A DNA stretch of 57,121 nucleotides from an uncultured Acidobacteriaceae bacterium (GTDB taxonomy: Bacteria; Acidobacteriota; Terriglobia; Terriglobales; Acidobacteriaceae): contig CAWBXL010000247.1 of assembly GCA_963792305.1 (NCBI GenBank), positions 1 through 57,121 of the forward strand. The letters are read 5' to 3'. Shown piece by piece: positions 7,930 to 41,151 of the stretch. The notes beneath the pieces are model-generated. The model was not told where the DNA came from. It saw only the letters and a program-made list of their open reading frames with translations, and made no database searches. Numbering within the stretch: position 1 is the stretch's first letter; every line of letters begins with the position of its first letter. Position numbers and translations under genes: made by a program.

Positions 7930-7975
7930 ATCCTTTCAGTATGCCGCAAAACGGTATAAATACGCTTGGTTTCAC

Positions 7976-9125: not shown

Positions 9126-9930
9126 TAACAATCAAGCACGAGTGGATACGGCTTCCTATCTCACATCCGCAAAGTATTACGACGACGCCTACGCCGTCAA
9201 ACCTGATCTTGTCGATCTGCCGTTCTACGTTGACTTGGCCAGGGAGATTGGCGGGCCGATGTTGGAAATGGGCTGTGGAACCGGGCGTGTTCTGCTGCCA
9301 ATTGCCCGCGCCGGCGTCGAGATTCATGGCTTAGACAATGCTCCTGCCATGCTCACAATTCTCCGCGCCCGAATCCAAGATGAAATTGCAGAAGTTCGCA
9401 ACAAAATCACACTTCATGAAGGCGACATACGGCAGTTCTGCGGGCAGCAGAAATATCGGCTAGTGACCATTCCCTTCCGGCCAATGCAGCATATGTACAC
9501 GCTGGCAGATCAATTGGCAGCATTAAAAACTGCGGCATTTCACCTGGATAAAAATGGCCTCCTCGCCTTTGATGTTTTCTTTCCCAAGTTTCAATTGATG
9601 GATTCAGGGATTGGAGAAGAAGTGTTCGAGCTGGAATGGCAGGTGAAGTCGCATCTTGGGCGAATCGTACGCCGTTATTTCAGAAAAGACTTAGTGGACA
9701 AGATCAATCAGGTCTTCAGCTTTACGTTCATCTTCCGGACTTACAATAACGACGTGCTGGTTAGTGAAGAGAGTGAGGCGCTCAAGTTGTCCTACTACGC
9801 ATACCCTCAACTCAAAGCGTTGTTCGAATTGGCAGGATTACAGTCGGTGGAGGAATATGGTTCTTTCAGTAAGGCACCTCTGAACAACGACGCCAAAGAA
9901 ATGATCTTCCTTCTAAGGAAGGCCGCGTAG
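9061..9930 (+). CDS. Class I SAM-dependent methyltransferase
   Basis: Motif I is MLEMGCGTGRVLLPIARAGVEIHGLDNAPAML and post-I is LHEGDIRQF. The listed start overlaps the previous gene, so the true start may be an internal GTG/ATG around 9140-9270. Confidence 0.75.
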   Translation: MLGLITARVPRQLPYNTLPPANNNQARVDTASYLTSAKYYDDAYAVKPDLVDLPFYVDLAREIGGPMLEMGCGTGRVLLPIARAGVEIHGLDNAPAMLTILRARIQDEIAEVRNKITLHEGDIRQFCGQQKYRLVTIPFRPMQHMYTLADQLAALKTAAFHLDKNGLLAFDVFFPKFQLMDSGIGEEVFELEWQVKSHLGRIVRRYFRKDLVDKINQVFSFTFIFRTYNNDVLVSEESEALKLSYYAYPQLKALFELAGLQSVEEYGSFSKAPLNNDAKEMIFLLRKAA

Positions 9931-14852: not shown

Positions 14853-14928
14853 AAAAGCTACTAGCTACTAGCTACTAGTCGCTAGCTAAGCCGTTTTGGC
14901 TAGAAGCTAGTCGCCAGTAGCTAGAGGC
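14853..14928. repeat. CTAG-saturated tandem repeat / imperfect hairpin filling the pheS-pheT spacer
   Basis: The spacer has (GCTACTA)x3, then tcgctagctaagcc-gtttt-ggctagaagctagtcgccagtagctag. There are seven CTAG tetranucleotides in about 70 nt, and the arms around gtttt are imperfectly complementary. Confidence 0.6.
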
Positions 14929-16039
14929 TTATCCAAATTGCTCTAAAAATCTGACATCACCTTGATAGAACAACTGAATGTCATCCACGCCATATTTCAA
15001 AATCGCGATGCGCTCCACGCCCATACCAAATGCAAATCCACTGACTTTTTTGGGATCATAGTCCACAAAACCAAAAACATTGGGGTCCACCATGCCGCAG
15101 CCTAGCAGTTCGATCCAGCCGCTGGCTTTGCAGTTCCGGCAAGGTCCGCCGTCGCGATAGCCTTTGCCTCCGCAGAAGATGCAGCTGATCTGCACGTCGG
15201 CGCTGGGTTCAGTGAACGGGAAGAATGACGGATAGAAACGCGTCTTCACGCTCGAGCCGAACAGCGCTTTCATGGCATGGTCGAGCGTGCCCTTGAGATC
15301 GCAGAAGGTGATGTTCGTATCCACCGCCAGACCTTCGACCTGATGAAAGACCGGCGAGTGCGTGGCGTCCGGCGCATCGTTGCGATGAACTTTTCCCGGA
15401 CACACCACGCGCACCGGAGGCTTCATCTTCTGCATGGTGCGAATTTGCACCGGAGACGTGTGCGTGCGCAGCAACAGGCGATCGCGTTGCGGCTTCGATT
15501 CCTGTCCGGCGATGAAGAGCGTGTCCTGCGTATCGCGTGCCGGATGGTTTGGCGGAAAGTTCAGCGCTTCGAAGTTGTAGTAATCGGTCTCAATCTCGGG
15601 CCTTCTTCAACGGAGTATCCGAGGTTGCGGAAGACTCCAACGATTTCGTTCATCGTCTTGATGACGGGTGCTCGGCGCCGATGGGGCGACGGGTGCCAGG
15701 GAGAGTGATGTCGACGTTTCGGCGTCAGGCTTGAATCGGATGCGCTGGATTGAATGCGAGCTGAGTGTCTCTTCGATGGTCTGCTTCGACTGCGGATTTT
15801 GACCTCGTTAACGCATTGTCCGACGTCGCGTTTGTTTCTTTCGGAGCGGCTTTCAACCACAGTCATTGAGCTGAGTGAACACGCCGTTCTTACGCGCCAT
15901 CCAACGATCACGGAAAGTTTTCCAGTCGGATTGTCTGCACTGCTGCCGATTCCTTGTTCAAGCGCAGACGGAAGTTCCTCTACGGCCTTTCAAGCGCCGT
16001 GGGCGAGAAGTCCGTGAGTTTTGGAACGTTATATGGCAT
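14929..16039 (-). CDS. pheS: Phenylalanine--tRNA ligase alpha subunit, frameshifted in the N-terminal half
   Basis: ORF 14929..15474 is the intact class II core ([45 protein letters not shown]). Upstream pieces read [53 protein letters not shown] and [12 protein letters not shown] in other frames. The start is uncertain (about 16039). Confidence 0.8.
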
Positions 16040-17004: not shown

Positions 17005-17585
17005 CTACGCTTGCTTGGCTTGCGCGGATGGCTGCGCTTGCGGAGCTGCTTTCGGTTTCTCTCCCGGCTTGGTTTTTGCATTCGGCGCCAGGATCAGGTG
17101 CAGCGTATTGCCTTCCTGCCGCGGCCGGAATTCCACGATTCCCTGGTCGCCAATATCTTTAATCAAGCGCTCCAGAATTTCACGGCCCAAACCAGTGCGC
17201 GTCATTTCTCGTCCGCGGAAAAAGATAGTTGCCTTGACCTTGTCGCCTTCATCCAGGAAACGCAGCACATGGTTCTTCTTGGTTTCGTAATCGTGATCGT
17301 CCACATTAATGCGGAACTTCACTTCCTTAATCACGATGATCTTCTGGTGCTTCTTCGCCTCGCGCTCTTTTTCTCCTGCTGGTACAGGAATTTCCCGAAA
17401 TCCATGATGCGACATACAGGTGGATTCGCTGTGGGTGAAATCTCAACCAGGTCCAGGTTTTTCGCGCGGGCCATTTTCAACGCTTCAAACGGAGGCAGAA
17501 CTCCAATCTGTGCGCCTTCGTCATCAATCACGCGAATTTCGCGGGCTCGAATACGGTCGTTGGTGCGGATAAAACGTTTATCGAT
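17005..17585 (-). CDS. infC: Translation initiation factor IF-3, one frameshift in a homopolymer; probable non-AUG (AUC) start
   Basis: The N-domain reads [69 protein letters not shown] (ORF 17331..17531 and upstream). The C-domain reads [40 protein letters not shown] (ORF 17005..17415). The frames join at the T5/A5 run 17368-17372. An in-frame ATC at 17585 lies 6 nt downstream of GGGGAGG. Confidence 0.85.
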
Positions 17586-17780
17586 AAATCCTCCCCTAAA
17601 TTGAACAACTCATTGGGATGCATGATTATAGCAAACTGGTGCGGGAGGCGTCATTGGGGAGATTTTCCACCTAAAAAGACTTGGAATTAGCTGGAATTCG
17701 GTGAGAATCCGGGGGCAATTGGCGTGTGGTAGCAGTCTTTACTTGGCCTTCACTCTTAATTGAGCCGGTTTGTGATAAGT

Positions 17781-21980: not shown

Positions 21981-24900
21981 TCAATAAATCAGCTTCAATG
22001 CTAACTGCAATTGCCGGGGAGCGTAGGCATCGGTGGCTTTCAGAAAGTTAGTTTGCTGCCGGAATTGCGCCGGGAAAACATTGATTCCAATGCGGTTATC
22101 GATTGGTACAAATTGTCCGGCATTGTTCAGAAAGCCATTGCTGGTGGCGTCCACTTTCTGATTGTCACGATTAAGCAGATTGAAAGATTCGACGATAAGA
22201 TCCAATTTGATTTTGTCATTCAGATAAATGCGTCGCGTCAGGCGCAAGTCGGTAGTGGAGTAGTCAGGGCCGATAAAAGAATTACGCGATACGCCGGGCA
22301 AACGATCGTTGAGAGAGTTGTCATCCTGGTTAGCGTCGCCAACCACATGCGCATCCACCGGACGCCCGCTGCCGTAAGTGAAAACTCCCGCGAGCTTCCA
22401 GCTGTTGAATAACTTTCCCAGCACAGCATGTTCGCGGTCGAAGGGACGCGGCTCCGCAATCCAGGAAAACGCCAGCCGGTTGCGCTGGTCAGTGACGCTA
22501 GGCCCGCGTTCCGCATTTGGGGCATATGAATTTTGTACGGTCGCGGGTTGTCCGGCGACCAGCGCATCCTGTCCGTCATCAATCGCTTTGGCGTAAGTGT
22601 AAGCAAGGCGGAAATAAAGTCCGTGCGTCATGCGGCGGCGGAGGGAAATTGTAATTCCCTGATAAGTGCTCGATGCAGCGCTCTCAAAAACATTCACCGC
22701 GCCTAGTTGCGAGATTGGTCGTATTAGCGGATTGATGCAAGGCGGAATCGGGCAGGTGGCCGAACGCGAAAATTGCGCGGTGGAAAATGAATCAACTGTG
22801 TCGTAGGTCCCGAGGAAGTTGCTCCCGGTCTGATCGAATACCGGATACTGCACCTCCGTTGGCGGCGGCAGATTGATATCACGCGCTCGGATCAAATGCT
22901 CGCCGTGAACATACATCAGAGAAACTCCCGCAGCCATGCGTTCAGCAAACTCTCGCTCGATGCTCAGGCTGGCCTGCTCTACATGCGGCGTCTGAAAATC
23001 ATGGGCAAAAGCAGAAACATCATTTTGTATGAAGCTGGCAAGGCTGGCCGGAGCCAGGCAGATAGTCGCAGTTAAAGGGCACGCATTTACAGCATTGGGA
23101 TATTGCGGAAAAACCTGATGATCAAAAAAATGCGCATTGTCTAAAAAACAGGTGACCGTTATTAATTCCGTTTTCGTTTTCAATCGTTGAAGTATAGATC
23201 TGCGGTATACGTGTATAGAAAATTCCGTATCCAGCACGAATCACAAGTGGACGTTTATCGCCGACTGAATAAGCCAGCCCGATCCGTGGCGTAAAATTAT
23301 TCGGATCATGCGGCACCTTTCCGGAATCAGGCCATAGAGGATTAGAAACCAGGGCCTTCAAATTGAAATTCTGTAGGTCATAGCGCGCCCCCAGGCTCAA
23401 AGCAAAATGATTCGTTACGCGAATTGTGTCCTGCACAAAAGCCGCATATTCATTGGTGTCTGGGTGAGTCACGGCTGAGCCAAAGTTCTGTATGTAATAT
23501 CGTGGCAAATTGTAGGCATAGGCGCGCAGTGGAGTCAGCGCCAATCCACCGACTTGCGGCTGAAAAGTATCATTGTTCACTTTGATAGTGTCGAAAAAAT
23601 ATTCTCCTCCAAACAATGATGGAAAAAAATTGTAAGTCTTGGTCATCAACATGTCCCCGCCGAACTTCCACGAATGCCGGCCTCCGCTCAGGCTGAGCGT
23701 TTCGGTGAGGTGCAGCCGCCGTTCATTGGTATTACGCGGCAGCAGGGAAGACCGTCCAAAGCCATCCAATACTCCATAAATTCGTGTAAGTGGTGCATCC
23801 GAGTTGCTGCTTGACCATTGCAGGTCCCGCGAAAATTGCGCCCGCAGATGGCTGATCAATTTCCCGGACAAGGCACTGGTCAAAGCCAGTGATGCAGTTT
23901 GGGTTGTGACTTGCTCCTCGCCATTGTCACTGGTTGCGAAAGAAGTCAGCGGGCTGGTGGGATCAAGGAAAACATTGTTGGCGCCGTAATAACGCGATGT
24001 GTTGACTCGCGCGGTAACTTGGTTCCGCGGCGTGAGCGAAAAATCCAGCTTGAAGAACCCGGTATTCCCCAGCATGCGCGCAGGAAAATTCCCCGCCATG
24101 GTGCTGAGTTGCGCCGCGGCTGCAAATACCTTGTCCTGGTCGTAACTTTCATAGTCCCCGTTATGCAGCGGCTCCGCACCTTTCTTCGGGACCAACACCG
24201 AGCTTCCATCCAAAAAACGGACTACAGTCGGAACATGAAATACATGCTGATCGTATCCGGCATAGAAAAATGCCCGATTGCGTTTGATCGGCCCGCCAAA
24301 AGTCCCGCCAAACTGGGTCTGCTGATCTTTGGGTTTGAACGTCATAAAAGGATGCTGGGCATCCAACGCGCTATTCCGTATATAGGCAAATCCAGTCCCA
24401 TGAAAATGATTGGAGCCAGACTTCGTAACAACATTGACCACGGCCCCGCCGGCGCGTCCTAACTCAGCCCCATAAGTATTCGACGAAACCCGAAACTCCT
24501 GTACCACTTCATTGGAAAATTGATAAGGCGCGCGATACCGCCCGCGGGCCTGCGAAAAAAATCCATTATTATTGTCCGCGCCATCCACCAGATAACTCGA
24601 CTGAAACCCGCGAATCCCGCCAAATGACAGATCTCCATTGGAGGAGGAAGTAAGCCCGCGCGGGTCCTGCGAAACTCCCGGAGTCAACAAAGCCAGATCC
24701 GTAAACCGCCGTCCATTCAGCGGTAACTCCTGAATCGCACGTTCATCCACCACCGCAGAAACCGCGTTGGGCTGGGTTTCCACCAAAGGAGGTTCCCCGG
24801 AAACCGTGACTGTCTCTTTAACTCCTGCGATGCTGAGCTTGAACTCCACTGTCACTGCACCGCCGACCTCGGCACGCAAATGTTCTGCCAGTTGCGGAGA

Positions 24901-25155
24901 CATCCGCTCGGCTTCAGCTCGCCCCGAGTATTCCCCCGGAGGCAGCAAGTCAAAAGTAAACCGTCCATCAGAATCGGTAATTGCGGAGTAGCGAAACCCG
25001 GTAGCGCTACTGACAAACACGACCGAAGCGTTAGGAATTCTGCCGCCAGAAGAATCGGAAACCACGCCGCGAATAGCGCCGGTAGAGGCGTCCTGCGCAA
25101 ACCCAGCAGCAACTATGAGAAGAGAGCAGAGAAAAAGACGGCCAGAGTGCAGCAT
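21981..25155 (-). CDS. TonB-dependent receptor with N-terminal carboxypeptidase-regulatory-like domain; one frameshift in an A6/T6 run
   Basis: ORF 23122..25155 has a signal peptide, a CarboxypepD_reg domain (GAIRGVVSDSSGGRIPNASVVFVS..TDSDGRFTFDLLPPGEY) and a plug (PLNGRRFTDLALLTPGV). ORF 21981..23237 is the rest of the beta-barrel, ending ..LQLALKLIY. The frames join as ..NNGHLF/LDNAHFFDH at homopolymer 23143-23148. Confidence 0.75.
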
Positions 25156-25701: not shown

Positions 25702-25840
25702 CCGCCAAGAATTTTAGCTGAGCAGCTACCACGAAAGCTTACACTTCATCATTTATGCTCTCCATTCAGCAGGTGTAGAATGGCCGCGATCATCGGAGTC
25801 AAATCGAAAATTCCTGCGCGATTCAATCTCAGCTCCTGCC

Positions 25841-27183
25841 ATGAACAAGAGAACTTTTCTCAAGCTGTCCTCAGCTGTGATGGCAAGCCGTTTCGTTTCG
25901 CCTTTATTTGCCTGGATGCCAACTGAAAAATTAACCAACTGGTCGGGCAATCTCGAATACAGCAGCCAGCAGTTAACCAACGCGGCGTCTCTGGACCAGG
26001 CGCAGGACTTCGTCCGCAAGCACAAAAAAATCAAAGTGCTGGGGACGCGCCATTGTTTCAACAACATCGCCGACAGCAAGGATGAGTTGCTTTCGTTGCG
26101 GCAGATGGATGAGGTTGTGGAGATCGATGGCAAAGCCAAAACCGTAACGGTGGAATCCGGCATCAGCTACGGCAAGCTGGCTCCTTATCTAGATAGCAAG
26201 GGATTCGCGCTCCACAATTTGGCGTCGCTGCCGCACATCTCTATCGCCGGAGCATGCAGCACAGCTACCCACGGATCAGGTGAAAAGAACGGCAACTTGT
26301 CTTCGGCGGTAGCAGGGCTGGAATTCATCAATGCCGCTGGTGACATAGTAAAGCTGTCTCGCGCAAAAGATGGAGAAATTTTCAACGGAGCTGTCGTAGG
26401 CCTAGGCGCGCTAGGCGTGATCACAAAAATCACGCTCGACATTCAACCTACTTACACAATGAAACAGTGGGTCTATGAAAACCTCCCGCTGGCGCAATTC
26501 AAGCAACACTTCGACGCCATAGAAGCCAGTGCCTATAGCATCAGCCTGTTTACCGACTGGCAAAATCAAAAATTCTCCGAAGTCTGGATCAAGAGCCGCA
26601 CAGAATCAGGCCACGAGTTCCCTGCACCTAAAGATTTCTACGGAGCACCCCGGCGGCAAAAAATCTCCACCCAATTGTCGAACTCGGCGCCGAAAACTGT
26701 ACCGAGCAACTAGGGATTCCTGGGCCCTGGTACGAACGTCTCCCACACTTCCGCATGGGATTCACCCCCAGCGCTGGTAAAGAACTGCAATCCGAATTTT
26801 TTGTCCCGAGGCAAAATGCGGTTGATGCGATTTTGGCGATAGAAAAACTGCGCGACCAAATCACCCCGCACCTGATGATCTCTGAAATCCGCACCATCGC
26901 CGCCGACAATCTCTGGATGAGCCCCGCCTATAAACAACCTTGCGTGGCGATTCACTTTACGTGGAAGCAAGACTGGCCGAACGTAAGCAAGCTGCTCCCG
27001 GTAATAGAAAAAGAATTAGCCCCGTTCAAAGGAAGACCGCACTGGGGAAAGCTGTTCACTACAAGCCCGCATATACTGAAAGATATTTATAAAAAGATGC
27101 CAGACTTCATCGAGTTGGCCAAGAAGTACGATCCAAAAGGAAAATTTAGAAACGACTTTCTGAACAGAAATATCTTCGGATAA
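25841..27183 (+). CDS. FAD-linked oxidase, D-arabinono-1,4-lactone/alditol oxidase family; one frameshift near 26690-26750
   Basis: ORF 25841..26713 reads NWSGNLEYSS..KVLGTRHCFNNIAD..ESGISYG..LPHISIAGACSTATHGSG (FAD_binding_4). ORF 26755..27183 reads FFVPRQNAVDAI..AIHFTWKQDW..RPHWGKLF (ALO domain). Confidence 0.75.
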
Positions 27184-32613: not shown

Positions 32614-33153
32614 CTACTGATCGAGCGTGCGGAAGAAACGGATGTGGACCGCCGGTTTTCCATCCACTGTAATCACGTCGAGAGTCCCTACATAAGCGCC
32701 ACCATTCAACCATTGATAAGGCCCAATGGGCGCTTCGAAAACCGGGGTCGTGTAGACGGGGCCGCGGTGCGCCGGATCTTTCGGACAAGAGCGTCCCCGA
32801 TTGTCCACATTGATAATGGCTCCGTCATCAGTTTGAATCATGTAGTTGGCGTTTATAAAAAAGCACCCTTCCTTGGCGGAGAGTTGCCAGTCCCATCCAC
32901 CGGGAAGAATCTTGCCGTGGAGCCGTGGTCCGCTAAACGTCCCGCCAGTGATGGGAACAATGTTCCGTTCGCCAAAAGGAGTAGCTCCGGGATGCATACT
33001 GGCGCCCAAGGTAACGGTTTCTTCATAGACAAATTCCATCCGAGGCGCCTCGTTCCCAACTGGCTTAGTGTCGGGACCCTGGGCGTTCATCCGCGAGCAC
33101 AGTAAAAGCCCAATCGCTAAGATCGTGAATTTTGCCGCACGTTTTTCGTTCAT
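32614..33153 (-). CDS. DUF3237 (UPF0311) family protein with signal peptide
   Basis: GERNIVPITGGTFSGPRLHGKILPGGWDWQL..ANYMIQTDDGAIINVDNRG matches the DUF3237 pattern. The N-terminal signal is AKFTILAIGLLLCSRMNAQ. Confidence 0.65.
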   Translation of the reverse strand: MNEKRAAKFTILAIGLLLCSRMNAQGPDTKPVGNEAPRMEFVYEETVTLGASMHPGATPFGERNIVPITGGTFSGPRLHGKILPGGWDWQLSAKEGCFFINANYMIQTDDGAIINVDNRGRSCPKDPAHRGPVYTTPVFEAPIGPYQWLNGGAYVGTLDVITVDGKPAVHIRFFRTLDQ

Positions 33154-33267
33154 GGAATGTCTCCGAAGTGAGATGAAGCCTGTTTCATCCGCACAAGATC
33201 TGCGAAATGTTCACCAAAATATCAGATTCTAAACTTTGCGTTCGCGGGGAGACTAAGACAGAATATT

Positions 33268-33436
33268 GACGGCAGCGTGAACGTGCCGCTCAACCACATG
33301 CAAGAACGCGTCGCCGAAATTCCCCGCGATCGCCGCCAGTATCCTGCAGCAGTATGGGATTACGAACTTAATCGAGATGGCCGGCGGCCTCGCCGCCTGG
33401 GAAGCGGCAAAACTGCCGGTGGTTTCCGCGGCCTAG
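33268..33436 (+). pseudogene. Rhodanese-domain gene remnant (C-terminal fragment with internal loss)
   Basis: DGSVNVPLNHMQERVAEIPRDR, then in another frame ..ILQQYGITNLIEMAGGLAAWEAAKLPVVSAA*. The active-site loop (C-x-x-G-x-R) and the N-terminus are missing. Confidence 0.3.
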
Positions 33437-33496
33437 GCGCGGACAGAGATATTGCACTCACCGGCCCAATTCTGAGTTCGCGCATTTCACGCGCTT

Positions 33497-33961
33497 CTAA
33501 CGGCCCGGCTCCTTGGCTGCTGCCGCCAGTAGATAGTCGGTCAAAATCTTCGCGGTCTGCGGATCCAGCGGCGCGGTCCCAGGTTTTGCCGCCGTCCCGG
33601 TGGGCACTTTACCCTTCACGCCGATATACACTCCGTTGTAAGCCGTATCACTCAGGTTCTCCACCGTGTGCTTGAAGGGCGGGAACCAGCGGGCTTCCCC
33701 GGGCTTGCCAAACACTTCCTGTGTTTTTCCGTCCTGATCGGTGAACTTCAAGTGCGAATCGGTGATGTTCACGATTACACCCTGGGGATGGTTGTGCATC
33801 GCCGACTTCTCATGGGGGCCATAGTGAACGTACACCACCTGCACTCGTTCATTTTCGAAATCCAGTTTGTAATGGGTAGGCTCGGTCTTCATAGGGTCTT
33901 GTGCACGAGCAAAGGTAAAAGCCACGCAAACCAGCACTGCAGTTGCGAAGAAGTTGGTCAA
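33497..33961 (-). CDS. Secreted cupin-like protein
   Basis: 154 aa with a signal peptide (FFATAVLVCVAFTFARA) and VQVVYVHYGPHEKSAMHNHPQGVIVNI..ARWFPPFKHTVEN, a cupin-style His-containing strand. Confidence 0.5.
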   Translation of the reverse strand: MTNFFATAVLVCVAFTFARAQDPMKTEPTHYKLDFENERVQVVYVHYGPHEKSAMHNHPQGVIVNITDSHLKFTDQDGKTQEVFGKPGEARWFPPFKHTVENLSDTAYNGVYIGVKGKVPTGTAAKPGTAPLDPQTAKILTDYLLAAAAKEPGR

Positions 33962-34140
33962 GATGCACCCTCCGTTTCCCAGTCTTTAAACAGGTACCGT
34001 TGGAACGCTAATGCTGCTCCGCGAAGCGTGTCAACGATCGAAAGGAGAGGGGCCCAAGCTGGTTACTGCCAAACAACTTGCCGAGGAGATCGAGTGCATT
34101 GGCGCGCCTTGAGCGAAGTCGGAGGGGGCACACGCCCTTT

Positions 34141-34240
34141 GTTTTACATCGAGGAGTCAGAGCATCCATTGGCGCAGGAGCAGACACGGAATCAGCTACC
34201 AGCTGGCCATGGAGAGGGCGTCGCTTCGTCTGCATCACAG
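34141..34240. repeat. ~100-bp dispersed repeat, copy A
   Basis: gttttacatcgaggagtcagagcatccattggcgcaggagcag..ggaatcagctaccagctggccatggagagggcgtcgctt..tctgcatcacag is nearly identical to 35314-35416. One frame reads HGISYQLAMERASL, resembling a decayed Fis-type HTH. Confidence 0.7.
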
Positions 34241-34312
34241 GCGATGCTGGGTAGGACCTCTTCATAAACTGGAAAACGTTCCGTCTGTCTCCGATTTTCC
34301 CAAGCATTTCCC

Positions 34313-34779
34313 TCAACGGCCTCCAGCGGCGGCTCTGAGCGATATGGCCAGGTCAGAAGTTTGCTGTGGGCTGAAATGGCCGCGAATGACTACAGAGTCA
34401 CTGAAAGAGCTTTGTATGGTCGGAGTCATGATGAGCTTATGGTCAATCACAAATCCCAGTTTGCCCGGTTGTGGCTGCTGGGCCAGTCGCGTGCTTGTTT
34501 CCTTCAGCCGCTGCCCCGCTTGGGAGGTGAAAAGCAGCCGTACCTCCGGCCCGAGTCATCCTGCCCGGCCTCCGCGTTTCTAACATCCATTTCATTCACA
34601 ACTGGCTTGTCAGCCAGACAATATTTCTCCGCGGTTCCCTCTACAGTCATAGGCGAGGTAGCGCTGCCCTTGCAGTCAACCACTTCGAAGATTCCCATGG
34701 TGACCGGCTTCACGTTGGCCGGCCGGCTCGATGTACAGCCGGTCAGGAATCCCAAAGCTATGATCGTGCAAGCCTTCAA
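34313..34779 (-). CDS. Lipoprotein with SecD/SecF P1-head-like domain, one frameshift near 34545
   Basis: The lipobox is IALGFLTGC. YCLADKPVVNEMDVRNAEAGQDDSG (ORF 34504..34779) continues in another frame as PEVRLLFTSQAGQRLKETSTRLAQQPQPGKLGFVIDHKLIMTPTIQSSFSDSVVIRGHFSPQQTSDLAISLRAAAGGR* (stop at 34313), which is the SecD P1-head pattern. Confidence 0.5.
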
Positions 34780-34962
34780 CTAGAACCTCCCTTTTGACTT
34801 CAAAAACGGTAAGAACTGTATCCCATTTTCCCTGTTCTCACAAACGTGAAAAGGGTTTCATCCGGGGTGCAGTTCATCCGTTCTGTCCCCGCTTTTCCCC
34901 ATCCTGCAAACTCTCGGCGGACGCCTGCGCCAGCTTCACGTCAGCGAGGTCAACACCGGGTG

Positions 34963-34999
34963 CCCCATCCTAAACGCGCCTTTTGCGTTTAGGGTGGGG
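34963..34999. repeat. REP-like hairpin
   Basis: ccccatcctaaacgc-gcctttt-gcgtttagggtgggg has 15-nt arms with one mismatch. Confidence 0.6.
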
Positions 35000-35063
35000 A
35001 TTTGCACGACGCTCTCAGCCTGGAATCAGTTCTCGCCTTTCAGAAGTTGGCGTTTACGCGGAG

Positions 35064-35126
35064 CCTGTCCTGAGCGAAGTCGAAGGATCTGAGCCGCGTG
35101 CCGAAATCCCGAGCGAAGCCGAGGGA
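35064..35126. repeat. Two direct copies of the GAGCGAAG-YCGARGGA REP-type motif
   Basis: cctgtcctGAGCGAAGTCGAAGGA (35064-35087) and cccGAGCGAAGCCGAGGGA (35108-35126). Related copies lie at 34107-34126, 44662-44680 (reverse complement) and 16133-16153 (reverse complement, more diverged). Confidence 0.6.
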
Positions 35127-35313
35127 GTTGTCGCATCTCATTCCTGCGGATGCTCCGGTCATCTTGGAGAGCAGAGTTGAAGAGTCGGAAATTAATCAAG
35201 AGATCGAGAGTGCTCTCAACGCGCTGAGCGCGAAGAATCACTTTGCCTTTGTCGGGGACTAGGCTTGAAACAACGGGAAAGTCCCATCTGTCCCGTATTC
35301 GTCCGTTCTTAAT

Positions 35314-35416
35314 GTTTTACATCGAGGAGTCAGAGCATCCATTGGCGCCAGGAGCAGCAGCGCGGAATCAGTTACCAGCTGGCCATGGAGAGGGCGTCGC
35401 TTTATCTGCATCACAG
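35314..35416. repeat. ~100-bp dispersed repeat, copy B
   Basis: Same orientation and sequence as 34141-34240 apart from a few substitutions and small indels. It ends about 100 nt from the 3' end of the TIR/SIR2 operon. A diverged core copy lies at 30178-30220. Confidence 0.7.
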
Positions 35417-35514
35417 TCGGATGGCTAAGTTTACTAGTTATGAAGAAAACTTTGCTGGTATATACGTAAGCAAGTAATCCAAATATTTGGGGATCGCTGT
35501 CAGAACCCATGCCT

Positions 35515-35862
35515 TCAAGGGATGATCGCTTCGTAGCGGTTCATCCAAGATTGCAATTGTGGTAAATCGCTCATCTGTAAAACTGGTCGTAAAACAGTTA
35601 GCGCACGCCCGACAGGATCCGCATGCGACGCAGTGTCCACCAATGTCATCAAGATATCCTTATTACCACGCTCGTCGATAACACCAAGCGAATACGCGAG
35701 CTCACTAAGTTCAAAATGATTTCCAGTCGTAACGAAGTTACTTATCTTGCTTTTTAAAATATTAGCTGACAGACGACCGGCAGAACCAAGGGATTTGAAA
35801 TGGAGATGCGCACTACTTCTTTCATTTTGCGTTTCTAGAAAGAGCCATGGATAGGTATTCAT
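35515..35862 (-). CDS. Hypothetical 115-aa protein, last gene of the TIR/SIR2 operon (could be a frameshift-separated C-terminal domain of the SIR2 protein)
   Basis: The ATG at 35862 is preceded by an in-frame TAA and overlaps the SIR2 ORF by 41 nt. No motif is recognised (MNTYPWLFLETQNERSSAHLHFKSLGS..). Confidence 0.4.
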   Translation of the reverse strand: MNTYPWLFLETQNERSSAHLHFKSLGSAGRLSANILKSKISNFVTTGNHFELSELAYSLGVIDERGNKDILMTLVDTASHADPVGRALTVLRPVLQMSDLPQLQSWMNRYEAIIP

Positions 35863-36770
35863 TTAATCGAGGTCCAGGCACAGTCAATGAATTTTGCAAA
35901 ATAAAAGGTATATGAACGAAATCGCTCACATAAAGAACATGTATTCCGTACTTTCTCCGCAGTGCGATGTCGTTCACGGTAGTTTCTTCTTCATGAAATA
36001 TTGCTACATGGTTCCGCAATGGGGAACCGAATTGATGAGCTATTGAGTCGATGAATGTATCGAAATCTGGGTCACTGAGACGGAACCCAACAAACAATAG
36101 ATTGAAGTTTGTTAAACATATTTGAACAAAACCGCGATAAGCAGGAGAGCGGACTAAAAGCTCTCGATATGATTCCTCAGTTAATACCAGCTCAGAAGTT
36201 GAATCAAGCGAACCGTGCGCTTTGAGGTAGAACGGACGTAACGCTACCGTGAGTGCTTGCCGCAAAGCAACTTCATCACTAGGAACGATTGGGTCTAAAA
36301 CGATACCTTTCTTGAGAGCGGCATTTTCATTTGGCCGAATCATAATTGAAAGTGATAATACCGTTTGGTTGCAAATCGATGATAACTGAGTGTAATTCCG
36401 CGAACGAACCGTCGACGTTTGTGACCGCATTACGAAAAACAGTATCGAATTCCTTAGGCGAAACAGCCCGTAAAATTGATGCCGCCAAAATCAAGTCTGA
36501 TCCCGAAGGCCACTCCTTTCCCGCGCTCATAGAATCCAATCGCAGCAAGCGCTGGCAATCCTCGTAGTCTTGACTATTTAGGCGATCTTTAAAATGGTCA
36601 AACAAAGTTGAAAGTAGTCCAGGCCATTGAGGCACTCGCCTCGCGGGATCTGCTTTTTGAAGTAATGTGCTTGAGATTCCAGCACCCGTTATACAGACGA
36701 GGTGATCGCCGGCAACTAAATCACACAACTGTTGAAAAGCTGGGATTCCCAGCCAATAGCTCACGCTCAT
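35822..36770 (-). CDS. SIR2-like (SIR2_2 family) NAD+-utilising protein, split by a +1 frameshift at 36324-36340
   Basis: ORF 36327..36797 reads VCITGAGISS..VPQWPGLLSTL..GIITFNYDSA. ORF 35822..36430 reads NENAALKKG..LKAHGSLDSTSELVLTEESYREL..FNLLFVGFRLSDPDFDTFI. Removing one A from the AAA at 36330-36332 gives ..FNYDSANENAAL.. The ATG at 36770 overlaps the upstream stop as ATGA. Confidence 0.75.
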
Positions 36771-37522
36771 TTTCGAGCTTCCTGGCACTCTTTCCAAATA
36801 TCAGTCCAAAAAATCTTCCAACATTTGTCAAGCAATAGAGTTTGGTCGTGATATTCAATCATTTGATCGCTAGACAAATGGGCCCTTTCCACTAATTGAT
36901 GAGCCGCCTTGGAATGTTCAATCTCAATTTCAGAATGTCGGATAAAAAAATCTAATTCGGTTTCAGAAAAGCCTAAACTTCGGAGTGTTTCCAGAAGTGG
37001 GCCATAGGTAGCAACGGCTGAAGATTCGAGAAAGCAATAAGTAGCTAACGCTCGGGGTAGAGAATTGCCTCCGAAGGCCATCTCCAATTCGCACACATAC
37101 CAACGAACGCCGGGAGCAACTTGTCCAGGTTTTAGTGGGAGTTCGCCTGGATCAATTCCTGCGGCCTTTGCAAAGCGCTCAAATATGATTGAATGCACTA
37201 AATTATGTTTACCTGAACCCAATTCCTCAAACAGAACTTCGGCGAAGAGTGCCATTGATTCACGGTCGGTTCGAGGGATTGTAGCCAGCAACCGAGAAAA
37301 TGCAACGACTTGATTTATTGAGAAATAGTGATAATGCTTGGCAAATGTTCTTATCGCAAATCTAGGGTCGGATGATTTAACAACCCATTGCATCCACTGA
37401 TGTTCAACAGATGCATCATTTGATATCGACTTAGAGTTATTGATACTTGTCATGGACATTCTCACATAATTTTTAGATTCCCAAACCTTGATATACAGCA
37501 TCGCTATAGTAATACTACTCAT
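36767..37522 (-). CDS. Haem-oxygenase-like / iron-containing redox enzyme family protein (PF14518-like)
   Basis: Intact 251 aa. FAKHYHYFSINQVVAFSRLL, FAEVLFEELGSGKHNLVHSIIFERFAKAAGI, ATYCFLESSAVATYGPLLETLRSLG and LDFFIRHSEIEIEHSKAAH follow the helical E/H ligand pattern of HO-like di-iron enzymes. The start ATG overlaps the TIR-like gene's stop (ATGAGTAG). Confidence 0.6.
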   Translation of the reverse strand: MSSITIAMLYIKVWESKNYVRMSMTSINNSKSISNDASVEHQWMQWVVKSSDPRFAIRTFAKHYHYFSINQVVAFSRLLATIPRTDRESMALFAEVLFEELGSGKHNLVHSIIFERFAKAAGIDPGELPLKPGQVAPGVRWYVCELEMAFGGNSLPRALATYCFLESSAVATYGPLLETLRSLGFSETELDFFIRHSEIEIEHSKAAHQLVERAHLSSDQMIEYHDQTLLLDKCWKIFWTDIWKECQEARK

Positions 37523-37979
37523 ATTGCTGAATAGATGCTTTAATTTGCCTATGTTGGATAGGGAAGTTATCTAATGCATATTGAATAATTTTAGCTTTAT
37601 ATTCGACGTGCACAGCAGGCCATATTCGGAGTGCGGCTGGACAAAGATCAGCATCTATCTGTCTTTTCCCGTTAAGATTAACGACGACAATCGGCAAATC
37701 GAGTTTTTGAGATATCTCAATTTCCCAAGCCACCCACTTTCTCAGATTTTTAGTGTTGTTCCCGACCAACACAATCGCCTGTTTTGCATTTGAAAATCTT
37801 TCTCTCAATCGACTTTTTATCGTTTCGTCCGAAGCTCTATCAGTAAGCATCCCTATGTCATGCGCATTATGGAAATTGAAGTCCATATTTTCATTCGATT
37901 TCCAGCCCTTCATGTACCGATAGGCCCTAATATCGGTATCCGCGTCGAAGATAATGTAGGTCTTGTTGCGATAGCTCAT
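37515..37979 (-). CDS. TIR-like domain protein (DUF1863 / ThsB-like)
   Basis: Intact 154 aa. KTYIIFDADTDIRAYRYMKGW.. and ..AIVLVGNNTKNLRKWVAWEIEIS..LPIVVVNL parallel ThsB (KRVFFSFHYQD..; VLIGSQTFNRRWVRYEI..IIGIHIN). A Glu sits at the position of the ThsB catalytic Glu. Confidence 0.7.
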   Translation of the reverse strand: MSYRNKTYIIFDADTDIRAYRYMKGWKSNENMDFNFHNAHDIGMLTDRASDETIKSRLRERFSNAKQAIVLVGNNTKNLRKWVAWEIEISQKLDLPIVVVNLNGKRQIDADLCPAALRIWPAVHVEYKAKIIQYALDNFPIQHRQIKASIQQYE

Positions 37980-37992
37980 ATCTTTCTGAAAT

Positions 37993-38029
37993 CAAAAAAG
38001 GGGGGGACACGGCGCACCGTGTCCCCCTT
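37993..38029 (-). terminator. Strong intrinsic terminator-like hairpin between nrdJ and the TIR-like gene
   Basis: The minus strand reads GGGGGACACGG-tgcg-CCGTGTCCCCC followed by ccTTTTTTgattt. The U-tract ends about 14 nt before the TIR-like ATG at 37979. Confidence 0.6.
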
Positions 38030-38154
38030 GCACAGAACGTCTTTCAATTTTGGTTGTAGGGCCCTGGATTCCGATGCCGTCTACACGGCATCCCCGAAAA
38101 TCCCACAACAGATTCCTCGCCGCAAACCGCGCGGCTCGGAATTACAACTGAAAT

Positions 38155-41151
38155 CTAGCTGCATCCCGAAGTCGAGCCGCAGCTTCCGCATCTGTAGCAG
38201 CTTCCGTTTCTGGTCATGATTGCGCCGCAGACGTGGCAGCTGGGAGCGTCTCCCAGATCGATCATGTTGGCCAGGGCATCGGAAGCGTGGACCGTTGTTG
38301 ACCGCTGGTCGCTGGTCGTTGGCTCAAAACTTTGTGAGCTTATGCCTTCGACTGGCGCGGCAACTCCGTTCAGCCGCGGCCTCAGGTTTTCGAACAGCAG
38401 TTGTTGCTGTCCGGTGAGGAAGCGCAATTGGAGCCAGCGGAAGATGTAGTCCATGATGGACTTGGCGAAGCCGATCTCTGCGGTTTTGCTCCAGCCGCTG
38501 GGCTCGAAGCGGGTGTGCGCGAATTTTTCGCAGAGCAGTTTGAGCGGCACGCCGTGTTGCAGAGCGATGGAGACGGCGCAGGCGAAGCTGTCCATGAGGC
38601 CGGAGACGGTGGAGCCTTCCTTCGCCATGGTGACGAAGATTTCTCCCGGCTCGCCGTCGGGATAGAGGCCGACGATGATGTAGCCCTCGTGTCCGCCGAC
38701 ATCGAACTTGTGCGTGACCGACATACGCTCATCCGGCAGGCGGTGACGCACGGCACGTGGCGGCGCGTTGAGATCCTGCTCAAGCTGCATGAGCGTGGGA
38801 GCGGCGGCCGGCTGGTTTCCGGCAGAAGCAGTCTTAGTGCCCGCGGCTGAAAGCGGCTGAGACTTTTTGCATCCATCGCGATACACCGCAACCGCCTTCA
38901 AGCCCAACTTCCACGCCTGAAGGTAAGCTTCCATAATGTCTTCAACCGATGCGTTCTCCGGCAAATTGACCGTCTTGGAAATGGCCCCGGAGATAAACGG
39001 CTGCGTAGCTGCCATCATCTTCAAATGCCCCATGTAGTGAATCGACCGAGTCCCCTTAGCCGGCTTGAACGAGCAATCAAACACAGCAAGGTGATCGTCT
39101 TTCACCGCAGGCGCACCCTCGATAGTTCCGGTCGCGTCAATATAAGAAACAATCGCATCCGCCTGCTCATGGTTGTAACCAAGCTTGAACAGAGCCGTCG
39201 GGACGGTGTTGTTGACGATCTTAATCATCCCGCCACCAACCAGCTTCTTGTACTTCACCAAAGCCAGATCAGGCTCGATACCCGTGGTGTCGCAATCCAT
39301 CATGAATCCAATCGTGCCTGTCGGAGCTAAAACCGTTACCTGTGAGTTGCGGTAGCCGTGCTTTTCGCCGTGGGCCAGGGCTTCGTCCCAGCATTGTTTG
39401 CTGGCTTCGTGGAGGCTCGCGGGAACATTTGTCTTGCTGATGTTGTTTACGCTGGCGCGGTGCATTCTGATTACATCCAGGAATGGTTCGCGGTTGATGT
39501 ACCAGCCCGGGCAGGCGGCTCCGGGCATTACATTGGAGCCCAGGTTGGTTTCTGCCAGGCCTTTTTTTGTTGGCTCTGTGGCTGGAGCTAGCGGTTCGCA
39601 GAGTTCGGCGATTCTTGAACTTTGCAAGTATGCTTCGCCGCACATGATTGCGGTTACGCAGGCGGCGTAGTCGCGGCCTCCGTCGGAGTCGTAGGGTAGG
39701 CCTGTTGCCATTAACAGTGCGCCCAGGTTTGCGTAGCCTAAGCCTAGCGGACGGTAGTCGTGCGAGTTGCGCATGATGGATTCGGTCGGGTATCCGGCGT
39801 TATCCACCAGGATTTCTTGTGCGGTGATCAGGACGTCAACCGCGTGGCGGTATGCCTCGACATCAAACGTTCCGTTCGGCGCGAACTTCACCAGGTTCAG
39901 GCTGGCCAGGTTGCAGGCTGAGTCATCGAGGAACATGTATTCGCTGCATGGGTTGCTGGCGTTGATTCGGTTTGTGTTCTTGCTGGTGTGCCAGCGGTTG
40001 ACCGTGGTGTCGTATTGCATGCCCGGGTCGCCGCAGTGCCACGTCGCCTCGGACAGTTTGTAGAGAAGGTCTTTGGCTTTGTAGGTGTTCATGACCGCGC
40101 CATCTTTGACCGACTTGGTGCTGAAGTTGGTGTCGCGGACTACTGCGTACATGAAGTCATCGGTTACGCGGACGGAGTTGTTGGCATTCTGAAAGAAAAT
40201 GGAGCTGTAGGCGTCGGAATCCGGAGACGACCCGTCGTAGCCTTGCGCTACCAGTGCGTGGGCTTTGGCTTCTTCTTTCTGTTTGCACTCGATGAAGTCG
40301 ATGATGTCCGGGTGCTCTACGTTCAGGATTACCATCTTCGCGGCGCGGCGGGTTTTGCCGCCGGATTTAATTACGCCGGCGAAGGCGTCGAAGCCTTTCA
40401 TGAAGCTTAGCGGGCCGCTGGCGGTGCCACCTCCGCTTAACTGTTCGGTGGAGGAACGCAGCGTGGAGAGATTAGTGCCGGTGCCTGATCCCCACTTGAA
40501 GAGCATGCCTTCTGTTTTGGCCAGGGTGAGGATGGAGTCCAGCGAATCTTGAACTGAATTGATGAAGCACGCGGAGCATTGTGGCTTGGTGTATCCGGTG
40601 ACGCCGAATTCGACATTTTGTGTTGCGGGGTTCCAGTGCCAGTTGCGTCCGTCGGAGTTGGGCTCGATTCTGTCGCAGCCTACGTTGAACCAGACGGGTG
40701 AATTGAAGGCCGCCATTTGGCGGACGAGGATGTGCGTCAGCTCGTCGTGGAACGTGGCGCCATCTTCCGGTGTGTGGAAGTAGCCTTGAGCTAGACCCCA
40801 ATCGCGGATGGTTTCAGCGACCCGGGTGATCAGCTGGCGCGCTCCGGTTTCGCGCTCTGGCGTGCCTAACGTGCCGTGTAGATATTTAGAGGCAACGATG
40901 TTTGTTGCCGTCATCGACCAATCTTTGGGGACTTCGACGTCTTTTTGTTCGAAGATGATTCCGCCCTTGGAGTCGGTGATCTGGGCCAGACGGAGTTCCC
41001 ATTCGATTTCGTCGTAGGGATTGACTCCGGCTTTAGTGAATAGACGGCGGAAGGTCAGACCAGTGGCCTTCTTTTTAGACGGGGTGGCGGCGGTCGTCGA
41101 GGTGGCCTCGGCGGCAGTGTTGGGGGCTCCTTGCGTGATTACCTCGGACAT
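38155..41151 (-). CDS. nrdJ: Adenosylcobalamin-dependent ribonucleoside-diphosphate/triphosphate reductase (class II)
   Basis: Intact 998 aa with AAFNSPVWFN, QCSACFI, GSGTGTNLS.LRS, NPCSEYMF.DDSACNLASLNL and VAVYRDGCK. The C-terminus has a Cys-rich zinc ribbon (CHVCGAIM..CYRCGSCGSTSGC). Confidence 0.9.
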   Translation of the reverse strand: MSEVITQGAPNTAAEATSTTAATPSKKKATGLTFRRLFTKAGVNPYDEIEWELRLAQITDSKGGIIFEQKDVEVPKDWSMTATNIVASKYLHGTLGTPERETGARQLITRVAETIRDWGLAQGYFHTPEDGATFHDELTHILVRQMAAFNSPVWFNVGCDRIEPNSDGRNWHWNPATQNVEFGVTGYTKPQCSACFINSVQDSLDSILTLAKTEGMLFKWGSGTGTNLSTLRSSTEQLSGGGTASGPLSFMKGFDAFAGVIKSGGKTRRAAKMVILNVEHPDIIDFIECKQKEEAKAHALVAQGYDGSSPDSDAYSSIFFQNANNSVRVTDDFMYAVVRDTNFSTKSVKDGAVMNTYKAKDLLYKLSEATWHCGDPGMQYDTTVNRWHTSKNTNRINASNPCSEYMFLDDSACNLASLNLVKFAPNGTFDVEAYRHAVDVLITAQEILVDNAGYPTESIMRNSHDYRPLGLGYANLGALLMATGLPYDSDGGRDYAACVTAIMCGEAYLQSSRIAELCEPLAPATEPTKKGLAETNLGSNVMPGAACPGWYINREPFLDVIRMHRASVNNISKTNVPASLHEASKQCWDEALAHGEKHGYRNSQVTVLAPTGTIGFMMDCDTTGIEPDLALVKYKKLVGGGMIKIVNNTVPTALFKLGYNHEQADAIVSYIDATGTIEGAPAVKDDHLAVFDCSFKPAKGTRSIHYMGHLKMMAATQPFISGAISKTVNLPENASVEDIMEAYLQAWKLGLKAVAVYRDGCKKSQPLSAAGTKTASAGNQPAAAPTLMQLEQDLNAPPRAVRHRLPDERMSVTHKFDVGGHEGYIIVGLYPDGEPGEIFVTMAKEGSTVSGLMDSFACAVSIALQHGVPLKLLCEKFAHTRFEPSGWSKTAEIGFAKSIMDYIFRWLQLRFLTGQQQLLFENLRPRLNGVAAPVEGISSQSFEPTTSDQRSTTVHASDALANMIDLGDAPSCHVCGAIMTRNGSCYRCGSCGSTSGCS

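Follow-up and report, generated by a model that had tools for sequence, protein, structure and literature searches.

What is encoded by the low-G+C stretch at positions 35515-37979 of contig CAWBXL010000247.1, and could it be an antiviral defence system? The contig comes from an uncultured Acidobacteriaceae bacterium (assembly GCA_963792305.1), and the whole 57,121-nt stretch that was analysed is referred to here as the window. A first-pass annotation had described the locus as a Thoeris-like operon of four coupled genes, encoding a TIR-like protein, a haem-oxygenase-like di-iron enzyme (HDO), a SIR2 protein and an unknown protein of 115 aa. The five minus-strand open reading frames (ORFs) that fill 35515-37979 were confirmed (37515-37979, 36767-37522, 36327-36797, 35822-36430 and 35515-35862). 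They make up three genes and not four, namely a ThsB-type TIR gene, an HDO gene and one gene for a SIR2 protein with a C-terminal HEAT-like domain (SIR2-HEAT). As had been stated, the locus is richer in A+T than its neighbours (G+C of 0.39-0.47 within it and of 0.54-0.61 on either flank). Features and their coordinates are collected in Table 1.

The supposed fourth gene is a part of the third. When the intact SIR2 proteins of the homologous loci L009, L007 and L004 were compared with the window by tblastn, they matched in three colinear pieces lying in three frames, and the 115-aa ORF, which by itself matches no known family, proved to be colinear with residues ~316-414 of the single SIR2 proteins of 438-456 aa encoded in homologous loci. 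The C-terminal tail KYLDYLLTYIPAKFSS, which comprises the last ~17 residues before the stop codon, is found in a further frame and ends at 35438. Since the pieces are in different frames, the window SIR2 gene (36770-35438) is broken by about four frameshifts, instead of the single one previously thought to need repair, and the 41-nt overlap at 35822-35862, which had been taken for a gene junction, reflects one of these frameshifts within the gene. Removal of one base per frameshift site yields a SIR2 protein of 442 aa, which retains 33 of the 34 invariant and 34 of the 36 near-invariant residues of the family. It had also been argued that a SIR2 protein of ~315 aa leaves no room for a sensor. 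The absence of SLOG stands, while the argument fails in this form, because the repaired protein of 442 aa carries a HEAT-like domain.

Among the relatives of this locus, HDO and SIR2-HEAT form the core that is stable in evolution. In every locus that reaches far enough, a single SIR2_2 ORF of 424-456 aa lies directly 3' of the HDO gene, and an HDO gene followed by an intact SIR2 gene was observed in L001/L006, L003/L008, L004/L005, L007, L010, L011, L012/L016, L013, L021, L022 and L023; the two-gene pair is present in at least nine distinct loci. The ATGA overlap at the HDO/SIR2 junction, which had been noticed in the window, is real and recurs in L001, L003, L022 and L023, and we take the two genes to be coupled in translation. 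Moreover, the two proteins can be fused. Protein P0065, of 690 aa and found on six contigs, consists of Haem_oxygenas_2 (22-180), SIR2_2 (349-494) and the C-terminal domain (515-678), while P0030 and P0032, which start inside the HDO domain where their contigs end, read through in frame into SIR2. The HDO can also be replaced. In L017 (4270-6395) an HD-domain protein gene accompanies SIR2 in place of HDO, and P0040 is an HD-SIR2 fusion; in L024 (4228-6318) the HD domain is likewise joined to the N-terminus of SIR2.

Two loci depart further from this arrangement. L014 (146-805) encodes a more distant HDO of 34-40% identity with no SIR2 gene behind it, the next gene being convergent, and because of this the HDO family reaches beyond the SIR2-linked clade. 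In L019 (1613-6377), a partnerless SIR2-HEAT gene stands head-to-head with a gene for a 1097-aa NACHT and FGE-sulfatase protein, which may be another defence pairing. As a side observation, the HD partner in L017 has a conserved N-terminal four-Cys motif, C-x7-C-x3-C-x5-C, with possible metal or Fe-S binding.

The SIR2 protein matches Pfam SIR2_2, and the hallmark motifs quoted for it (ITGAGIS, FNYD, KAHGS and LLFVGFRLSDPDF) are all present. The catalytic residues N143 (in FNYD) and H186 (in KAHG) are invariant in 27 sequences and are retained in the window. The family profile is nearest to ThsA (7uxt, 6e-16; 6lhx, 6e-14) and DSR2, whereas classical deacylases score only E ~0.3-0.5. Structure prediction with Foldseek, which had been recommended, was carried out with P0016, the closest intact homologue of the window SIR2 (67% identical). 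Its AlphaFold2 (AF2) model has a predicted local distance difference test score (pLDDT) of 92, and its structural matches are DSR2, ThsA, KomC and Avs5.

The C-terminal part of the P0016 model is all-helical at residues 300-444 with pLDDT >90, and positions 309-404 of the family profile match alphaRep/HEAT-repeat proteins; in one member of the family, Pfam HEAT_2 also matches this domain weakly. A search of the HEAT-domain profile against 1.84 billion representative proteins returned 73 hits at E<=1e-10, some of which are generic long multi-repeat HEAT proteins. The complete domain occurs essentially only at ~290-450 of SIR2 proteins, and weaker matches are mostly generic HEAT-repeat proteins. 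The domain was also considered as a possible part of other effector types, such as a cytidine monophosphate (CMP) hydrolase, and this was rejected, as the profile search gave essentially only SIR2 proteins and generic HEAT proteins. The gene set is rare, ~70 clusters (50% identity) being counted in 1.8 billion representative proteins. We regard the HEAT-like domain as a candidate sensor or interaction domain.

The HDO belongs to PF14518, annotated as 'iron-containing redox enzyme', and its earlier description as a haem-oxygenase-like di-iron enzyme is borne out by fold and ligands alike. The AF2 model (pLDDT 88) matches CADD in Foldseek (4e-6, target-normalised template-modelling score, TMt, 0.80), and the fold also matches FlcD, SznF, BesC and UndA with TM of ~0.7-0.8. 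Six metal-ligand columns (E100, H110, E166, H196, E200 and H203) do not vary among 15 homologues, and they line up with the ligand motifs that are present in BesC and in a CADD-type 4-aminobenzoate synthase. The window HDO thereby has the three His and three carboxylate ligands that characterise the HDO superfamily, and all of the ligands are kept in the fusion P0065. As a lead only, the ligand spacing equals that of SznF, whose ligands we take to be E215, H225, E281, H311, D315 and H318. Relatives of the window HDO are scarce, only 14 being found among 5.8 billion clustered proteins.

The start of the HDO gene deserves a comment. An ATGAGTAG overlap with the TIR gene at 37515-37522 had been proposed, and the ORF coordinates do agree with it. 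As a junction of the genes it is doubtful, since homologues begin ~22-24 residues later (at ~residue 22-30 of the longest window ORF). The N-terminal 22-34 residues of that ORF are unconserved and predicted to be disordered (residues 1-34 have pLDDT <50), and for this reason the overlap probably does not mark the real HDO start. Conservation and the structural model together suggest that the true start is likely the ATG at 37459 or 37453, giving a protein of ~228-230 aa.

In summary of its variants, the HDO is predicted to keep a full di-metal site, is swappable with an HD metalloenzyme and seems to be needed with or without a TIR, which would tie its function to SIR2 rather than to processing of a TIR signal.

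The first gene of the locus encodes the TIR. Its assignment to ThsB, with the motif KWVAWEIE, is upheld by both Pfam and PADLOC, and the catalytic-type Glu in W-E-I-E aligns with that of the ThsBs of Yirmiya et al. 2025 (bioRxiv 10.64898/2025.12.03.692087), a preprint. A hidden Markov model scan of all 26 loci found a TIR only in the window, L009, L018 and L015, in each case on the same strand and directly upstream of HDO (gap of 10 nt in L009, which is from Limisphaerales, 11 nt in L018 and 104 nt in L015). The full order TIR, HDO, SIR2 is repeated in L009 and L018; in L015 the contig ends inside the HDO gene, and TIR and HDO are present. The expectation of a conserved, same-strand and tightly spaced unit of TIR, HDO and SLOG-less SIR2_2 is thus confirmed by L009 and L018, while the TIR as an obligate part is not, as 13 of the 17 distinct loci with readable flanks have none.

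The window TIR shares 65% identity with those of L009 and L018, and the TIR of L015 is 32-38% identical to the others. The window TIR is 51-64% identical to ThsBs of the preprint's cluster 2598792572, which also contains type II Thoeris TIRs, and the TIRs of our loci are 51-75% similar to ThsBs of that cluster adjoining SLATT, CMP-hydrolase and ion-channel effectors. They are as close to ThsBs with other effectors as to each other. ThsB-type TIRs of at least three lineages precede HDO and SIR2-HEAT, so that the pair acts like an effector module that can be exchanged. Most simply, HDO and SIR2-HEAT would constitute an effector module of their own, to which promiscuous ThsB TIRs were attached several times. 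A co-divergence of the TIR with HDO and SIR2, suggested by proportional identities, was considered and dropped, as the TIRs are equally near to ThsBs of other Thoeris types. Likewise, a prediction of the TIR signal from the preprint was abandoned, since the nearest TIRs listed there come from non-defending constructs or are uncharacterised; the validated type X TIR of cluster 2598792572 is reported there to have made no known molecule.

How, then, might the locus work? The reading that we favour, for which we consider the case evenly balanced, is a three-gene Thoeris-like unit whose two-enzyme effector, HDO plus SIR2-HEAT, would deplete nicotinamide adenine dinucleotide (NAD+). Upon infection, the TIR would produce an NAD-derived signal, the chemistry of which is not predictable. 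The signal would activate a complex of HDO and SIR2-HEAT, the likely receiver being the HEAT domain or the metalloenzyme partner. SIR2 would then degrade NAD+ and abort the infection, as suggested by its homology to ThsA and DSR2 and by the invariant catalytic Asn and His. The HDO might perform a second, O2-dependent catalytic step linked to SIR2, and a guess at its substrate would be NAD+ or a cleavage product; alternatively, it may serve as a ligand-handling regulatory subunit of SIR2. Of the whole scheme, the part given to the HDO is the least secure. Versions without a TIR would need another trigger, for example a phage protein bound directly by the HEAT domain, as in DSR2.

Of the known systems, Thoeris comes closest, and the locus would be a variant of it that has a new effector. 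Similar to type I Thoeris, a ThsB-type TIR gene lies beside a gene of the SIR2_2 NADase type, NAD+ depletion is expected, and the SIR2 domain has its nearest counterpart by sequence in ThsA. The PADLOC match of the second SIR2 piece to ThsA1 (3e-12) concerns the SIR2 part only, and of the 478 positions of the ThsA1 model just 87-273, again the SIR2 part, are matched. Unlike in type I Thoeris, the 3'cADPR-binding SLOG (STALD) domain of ThsA is replaced by a HEAT-like alpha-solenoid of ~145 residues, a tightly coupled or fused di-iron enzyme is added, and the TIR is missing from most loci. In addition, the window TIR falls in a cluster linked by Yirmiya et al. to types II, VII, VIII and X and not to the type I example. 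Because SLOG is absent, the locus is not a type I Thoeris system.

Another parallel is offered by the Thoeris types V-XI and the 29 putative types of Yirmiya et al., in which the same ThsB TIR family is combined with swappable effectors (bioRxiv 10.64898/2025.12.03.692087). In the type VIII effector ThsI of that preprint, a helical-repeat (TPR) domain was proposed to perceive the signal. Those systems are described there as two-gene operons, unlike the present one. Neither a SLOG-less SIR2 effector nor an oxygenase effector is named in its text and partial tables, which leaves their absence from the catalogue unproven.

Several points weigh against the Thoeris-like proposal. A TIR gene is present in 4 and lacking in 13 of the 17 distinct loci with readable flanks, and therefore TIR signalling cannot be the general trigger. 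The same effector subclade is found with and without a TIR: the other members of the window subclade (59-71% identity in HDO and SIR2), L021, L023, L022 and L011, have none, and L009, L018 and L015 form a separate HDO/SIR2 subclade. No recognised nucleotide-sensor domain (SLOG, Macro, SAVED or CARF) was detected in Pfam and PADLOC scans, PADLOC returned no match for HDO, and literature searches yielded no precedent for HDO in immune systems. Several loci sit among housekeeping genes. Finally, for all members of the family, defence, NADase activity and signalling are predictions from sequence.

The state of the SIR2 gene raises a separate doubt, since the gene may be a true pseudogene, with a toxic effector killed by slippage mutations and the TIR and HDO genes left as remnants of a dead system. 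We give this explanation appreciable weight, while considering it the less probable. The four frameshifts are packed into 1.33 kb of SIR2, with none in the adjoining 1.2 kb of TIR and HDO; the invariant R426 is lost from the repaired protein, which would fit real inactivation, and the near-invariant H148 is replaced by N at the site of the first frameshift. The locus is also an islet adjoining repeats. Against this, the repaired protein deviates at 3 of the 70 conserved positions of the family, as compared with 0-14 in intact members, and genes elsewhere on the contig are broken in the same way.

The initiation factor gene infC (17008-17609, minus strand) is split, with IF3_N in ORF 17334-17609 and IF3_C in ORF 17008-17442 in different frames, and its garbled linker suggests two indels. 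In pheS (14932-15989, minus strand), split near 15570-15608, one inserted base widens the tRNA-synt_2d match from model positions 41-246 to 13-246; the N-terminal part still seems to be out of frame, so that a further indel upstream is likely. Both genes thus appear to contain more than one frameshift. At least three further genes are split alike: a TonB-dependent-receptor-like gene (21981-25155, minus strand; CarboxypepD_reg, Plug and OMP_b-brl_4) at ~23148 in a T6 run, where one extra base explains the break; a CT398/DUF164-like gene (7976-9125, plus strand; coiled coil and Zn ribbon) near 8493; and an FAD-binding/ALO oxidase gene (25718-27180, plus strand) near 26650-26710. These cases rest on Pfam checks of split genes, as a scan that joined ORFs across homopolymers gave too much noise in a contig this rich in G+C. 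Because infC and pheS are essential, and essential genes cannot be pseudogenes, the assembly of this contig has clustered indel errors. The SIR2 frameshifts are rated as assembly artefacts on the same ground, and we consider it probable, with reasonable though not high confidence, that they are such errors. The earlier picture of an acquired islet in decay is accordingly not maintained. On this contig, small 'unknown' genes and odd overlaps can stem from indel errors and should be read with caution.

A different view of the function would make the locus a self-contained DSR2-type system, in which the HEAT domain senses a phage protein, SIR2 depletes NAD+, and the TIR, where one is present (four loci), makes no signal for this effector but is an extra: another NADase or sensor, or a one-gene system next door. 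We judge this to be rather unlikely, although it accounts well for the many loci without a TIR, including the single-protein fusions P0065 and P0040. DSR2 is among the top structural matches and likewise has an N-terminal SIR2 NADase followed by an alpha-solenoid (HEAT) region, and it functions without a TIR, as most HDO and SIR2 loci must. Its alpha-solenoid C-terminal region binds the phage tail-tube protein (PMC11263360, PMC11850899). The lack of a known nucleotide-sensor domain in the Pfam scans would also fit. On the other hand, TIRs of three divergent ThsB lineages share the same-strand upstream position with gaps of 10-104 nt, and they belong to a cluster of signal-type ThsBs that occur with many different effectors; stand-alone TIRs are classed separately in the preprint (bioRxiv 10.64898/2025.12.03.692087).

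The family is in any case not DSR2 itself, because size and family score both fail. DSR2 is a single protein of ~1000 aa with long middle and C-terminal domains, in contrast to ~440 aa with a solenoid of ~145 aa here, and the present protein reaches 30 bits with the NCBIfam Dsr2 model, whose cut-off is 1400. The Foldseek alignment with DSR2 essentially covers the SIR2 domain (TMt of ~0.24 with full chains and 0.7 with SIR2-only chains). DSR2 also lacks the obligatory metalloenzyme partner that is seen here.

A non-immune role is improbable. Such a module would act in NAD+-linked metabolism, stress or natural-product formation, with SIR2 as an ADP-ribosyl- or acyl-transferase and HDO oxidising a small-molecule substrate. 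The characterised HDOs from the fold search (CADD, FlcD, SznF, BesC, UndA and HrmI) all act in small-molecule biosynthesis, consecutive enzymes fused into one protein are a typical feature of pathways, and the loci placed within housekeeping genes would suit this view. However, the SIR2_2-type domain is nearest to the defence NADases ThsA, DSR2, KomC and Avs5 and remote from deacylases, its association with ThsB-type TIRs is repeated, and the surroundings of the pair contain no further conserved biosynthetic genes. The pair occurs rarely and patchily, and the neighbourhood differs in every locus, several of them with mobile-element or defence genes.

The contig of L018, for instance, is similar to a plasmid or an integrative and conjugative element (AcaB, ParM/StbA, RadC, IS110 and an integrase), and the operon there adjoins the PADLOC candidate defence gene PDC-S31. 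In L009, the TIR, HDO and SIR2 genes are flanked by near-identical pairs of a tyrosine-recombinase and an IS91-like gene (7196-9321 and 13005-15188), which resembles a composite transposon. In L025 (4242-5207) and L026 (3141-3995), the gene of another, unrelated SIR2 protein comes after the fused HDO-SIR2-HEAT gene; the PADLOC models Aga_SIR2 and generic 'SIR2' match it at 1e-11 to 1e-13, and in L025 its family is of the defence type. Among PLSDB plasmids, tblastn with the SIR2 protein gave only distant SIR2 matches (at most 27% identity) and tblastn with HDO gave nothing, and IMG/VR viral contigs contained no relatives of either. Rarity, patchiness and mobility of this kind are more in keeping with a defence islet than with a metabolic pathway.

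The weakest alternative, four separate and translationally coupled genes with an independent 115-aa protein, is scarcely credible and was rejected on tblastn colinearity, intact homologous SIR2 ORFs and the domain profile search: an ATG-initiated ORF does exist at 35515-35862, but in 27 of 27 aligned members and in all examined loci its sequence forms the C-terminal domain within a single SIR2 ORF, and the complete domain is essentially restricted to SIR2 proteins.

Two further comparisons bear on the partnership of HDO and SIR2 in the Thoeris-like reading. In Kongming, the small SIR2 NADase KomC works in a complex with a partner of metabolic-enzyme fold, and thus offers an earlier case in which an enzyme-like subunit and a small molecule control a SIR2 effector. 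KomC is also a structural match of the window-family SIR2. The partners differ, being HAM1-like and deaminase proteins in Kongming and HDO or HD here; Kongming has no TIR, and the sequence relationship is confined to the SIR2 domain. With the HDOs SznF, BesC, CADD, FlcD, UndA, HrmI and RohS, the window enzyme shares the seven-helix fold (TM 0.7-0.8) and the common ligand pattern E...H / E / H-x3-[ED]-x2-H. Their sequences are only 13-20% identical to it, and the known members all belong to small-molecule biosynthesis, none being found linked or fused to SIR2 or TIR in literature searches. Full-text searches retrieved no paper joining PF14518/HDO enzymes with SIR2, TIR or phage defence, and, as the first-pass annotation had supposed, no published description of this gene set was found.

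SIR2 and TIR NADase systems form one of the main branches of immunity in bacteria, and the catalogue of Thoeris effectors is growing fast. To these the present module adds a SIR2 effector carrying a HEAT-like domain instead of SLOG, together with an obligatory redox metalloenzyme partner, coupled or fused and replaceable by HD, of a kind that is absent from described NAD+-depletion systems. The partner hints at chemistry past NAD+ hydrolysis, such as destroying the products that phages use for rebuilding NAD+, or making or removing a ligand. A bolder proposal, which we put forward only tentatively and regard as on the unlikely side, is that the pair represents a previously unrecognised two-enzyme immune effector, in which an O2-activating di-iron enzyme (or, in sister systems, an HD metalloenzyme) is physically coupled to an NADase and which was independently recruited by Thoeris TIRs several times. 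The metalloenzyme may then modify NAD+ chemically, or products of its breakdown, or the signal that activates the effector. If this holds, NAD+-based immunity of prokaryotes would gain its first oxygenase-type enzyme, and TIR signals a new receiver, the HEAT domain. The versions with and without a TIR offer a natural comparison for how effectors join TIR signalling.

Table 1. Positions of the genes, gene pieces, frameshifts and boundary elements of the locus in the window.
Feature	Position	Strand	Evidence or remark
thsB-like TIR gene, 154 aa, intact	37515-37979	-	Pfam ThsB_TIR 9.3e-19, PADLOC ThsB1 1.1e-60
HDO gene, longest ORF 251 aa	36767-37522	-	Pfam PF14518 (Haem_oxygenas_2) 2.4e-18
SIR2-HEAT gene, ~442 aa repaired; five frame pieces as assembled	35438-36770	-	tblastn, three-frame translation
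SIR2 piece 1, N-terminal half of SIR2 domain (ITGAGIS, FNYD)	36327-36770	-	
SIR2 piece 2, C-terminal half of SIR2 domain (KAHGS, VGFRLSDPDFD)	35822-36430	-	Pfam SIR2_2 1.6e-19
SIR2 piece 3 (the 115-aa ORF), HEAT-like alpha-solenoid C-terminal domain	35515-35862	-	colinear with L009 SIR2 316-414
ATGA stop/start overlap, HDO/SIR2 junction	36767-36770	-	same 4-nt overlap in homologous loci
Frameshift 1, AAA run ahead of in-frame TGA	36330-36332	-	one-base deletion restores FNYDSANENAAL (family NYDxAHENA)
Frameshift 2, somewhere within the stretch; source of the apparent 41-nt overlap	35825-35845	-	homologues uninterrupted (LSxxxxxRxxAHxxF)
Frameshift 3, CCC run	35519-35521	-	three-frame translation (...NRYEAII / LEGMGSD.. 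/ ..KYLDYLLTYIPAKFSS and stop), compared with P0016 tail
Frameshift 4, within the stretch	35489-35500	-	three-frame translation, compared with P0016 tail
Intrinsic terminator of upstream nrdJ, upstream boundary of the low-G+C locus	38002-38027	-	11-bp G+C-rich stem and T-run
~110-bp direct repeat, copy 1, downstream boundary	35311-35425	.	12 nt past SIR2 stop codon
~110-bp direct repeat, copy 2	~34138-34248		exactly two copies in window, 1.17 kb apart

Both boundaries of the locus are marked by sequence elements. Upstream, the strong terminator of nrdJ ends ~20 nt before the TIR ATG, and the G+C content falls there. This position leaves hardly any space for a dedicated promoter of the TIR operon. 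Read-through, or a promoter overlapping the nrdJ terminator, may drive the operon. Matches in a promoter scan were no more frequent than in shuffled sequence and were not used. An Rfam scan of 33000-38400 gave no match, and a tRNA scan found no tRNA in the window, hence no tRNA-linked integration site. Downstream, the repeats that had been said to abut the locus are represented by a copy of the ~110-bp repeat at its 3' end. The 1.1 kb separating the two copies contains no convincing gene and no Rfam match. The repeat itself could be a miniature inverted-repeat transposable element, an att-like site or an insertion scar.

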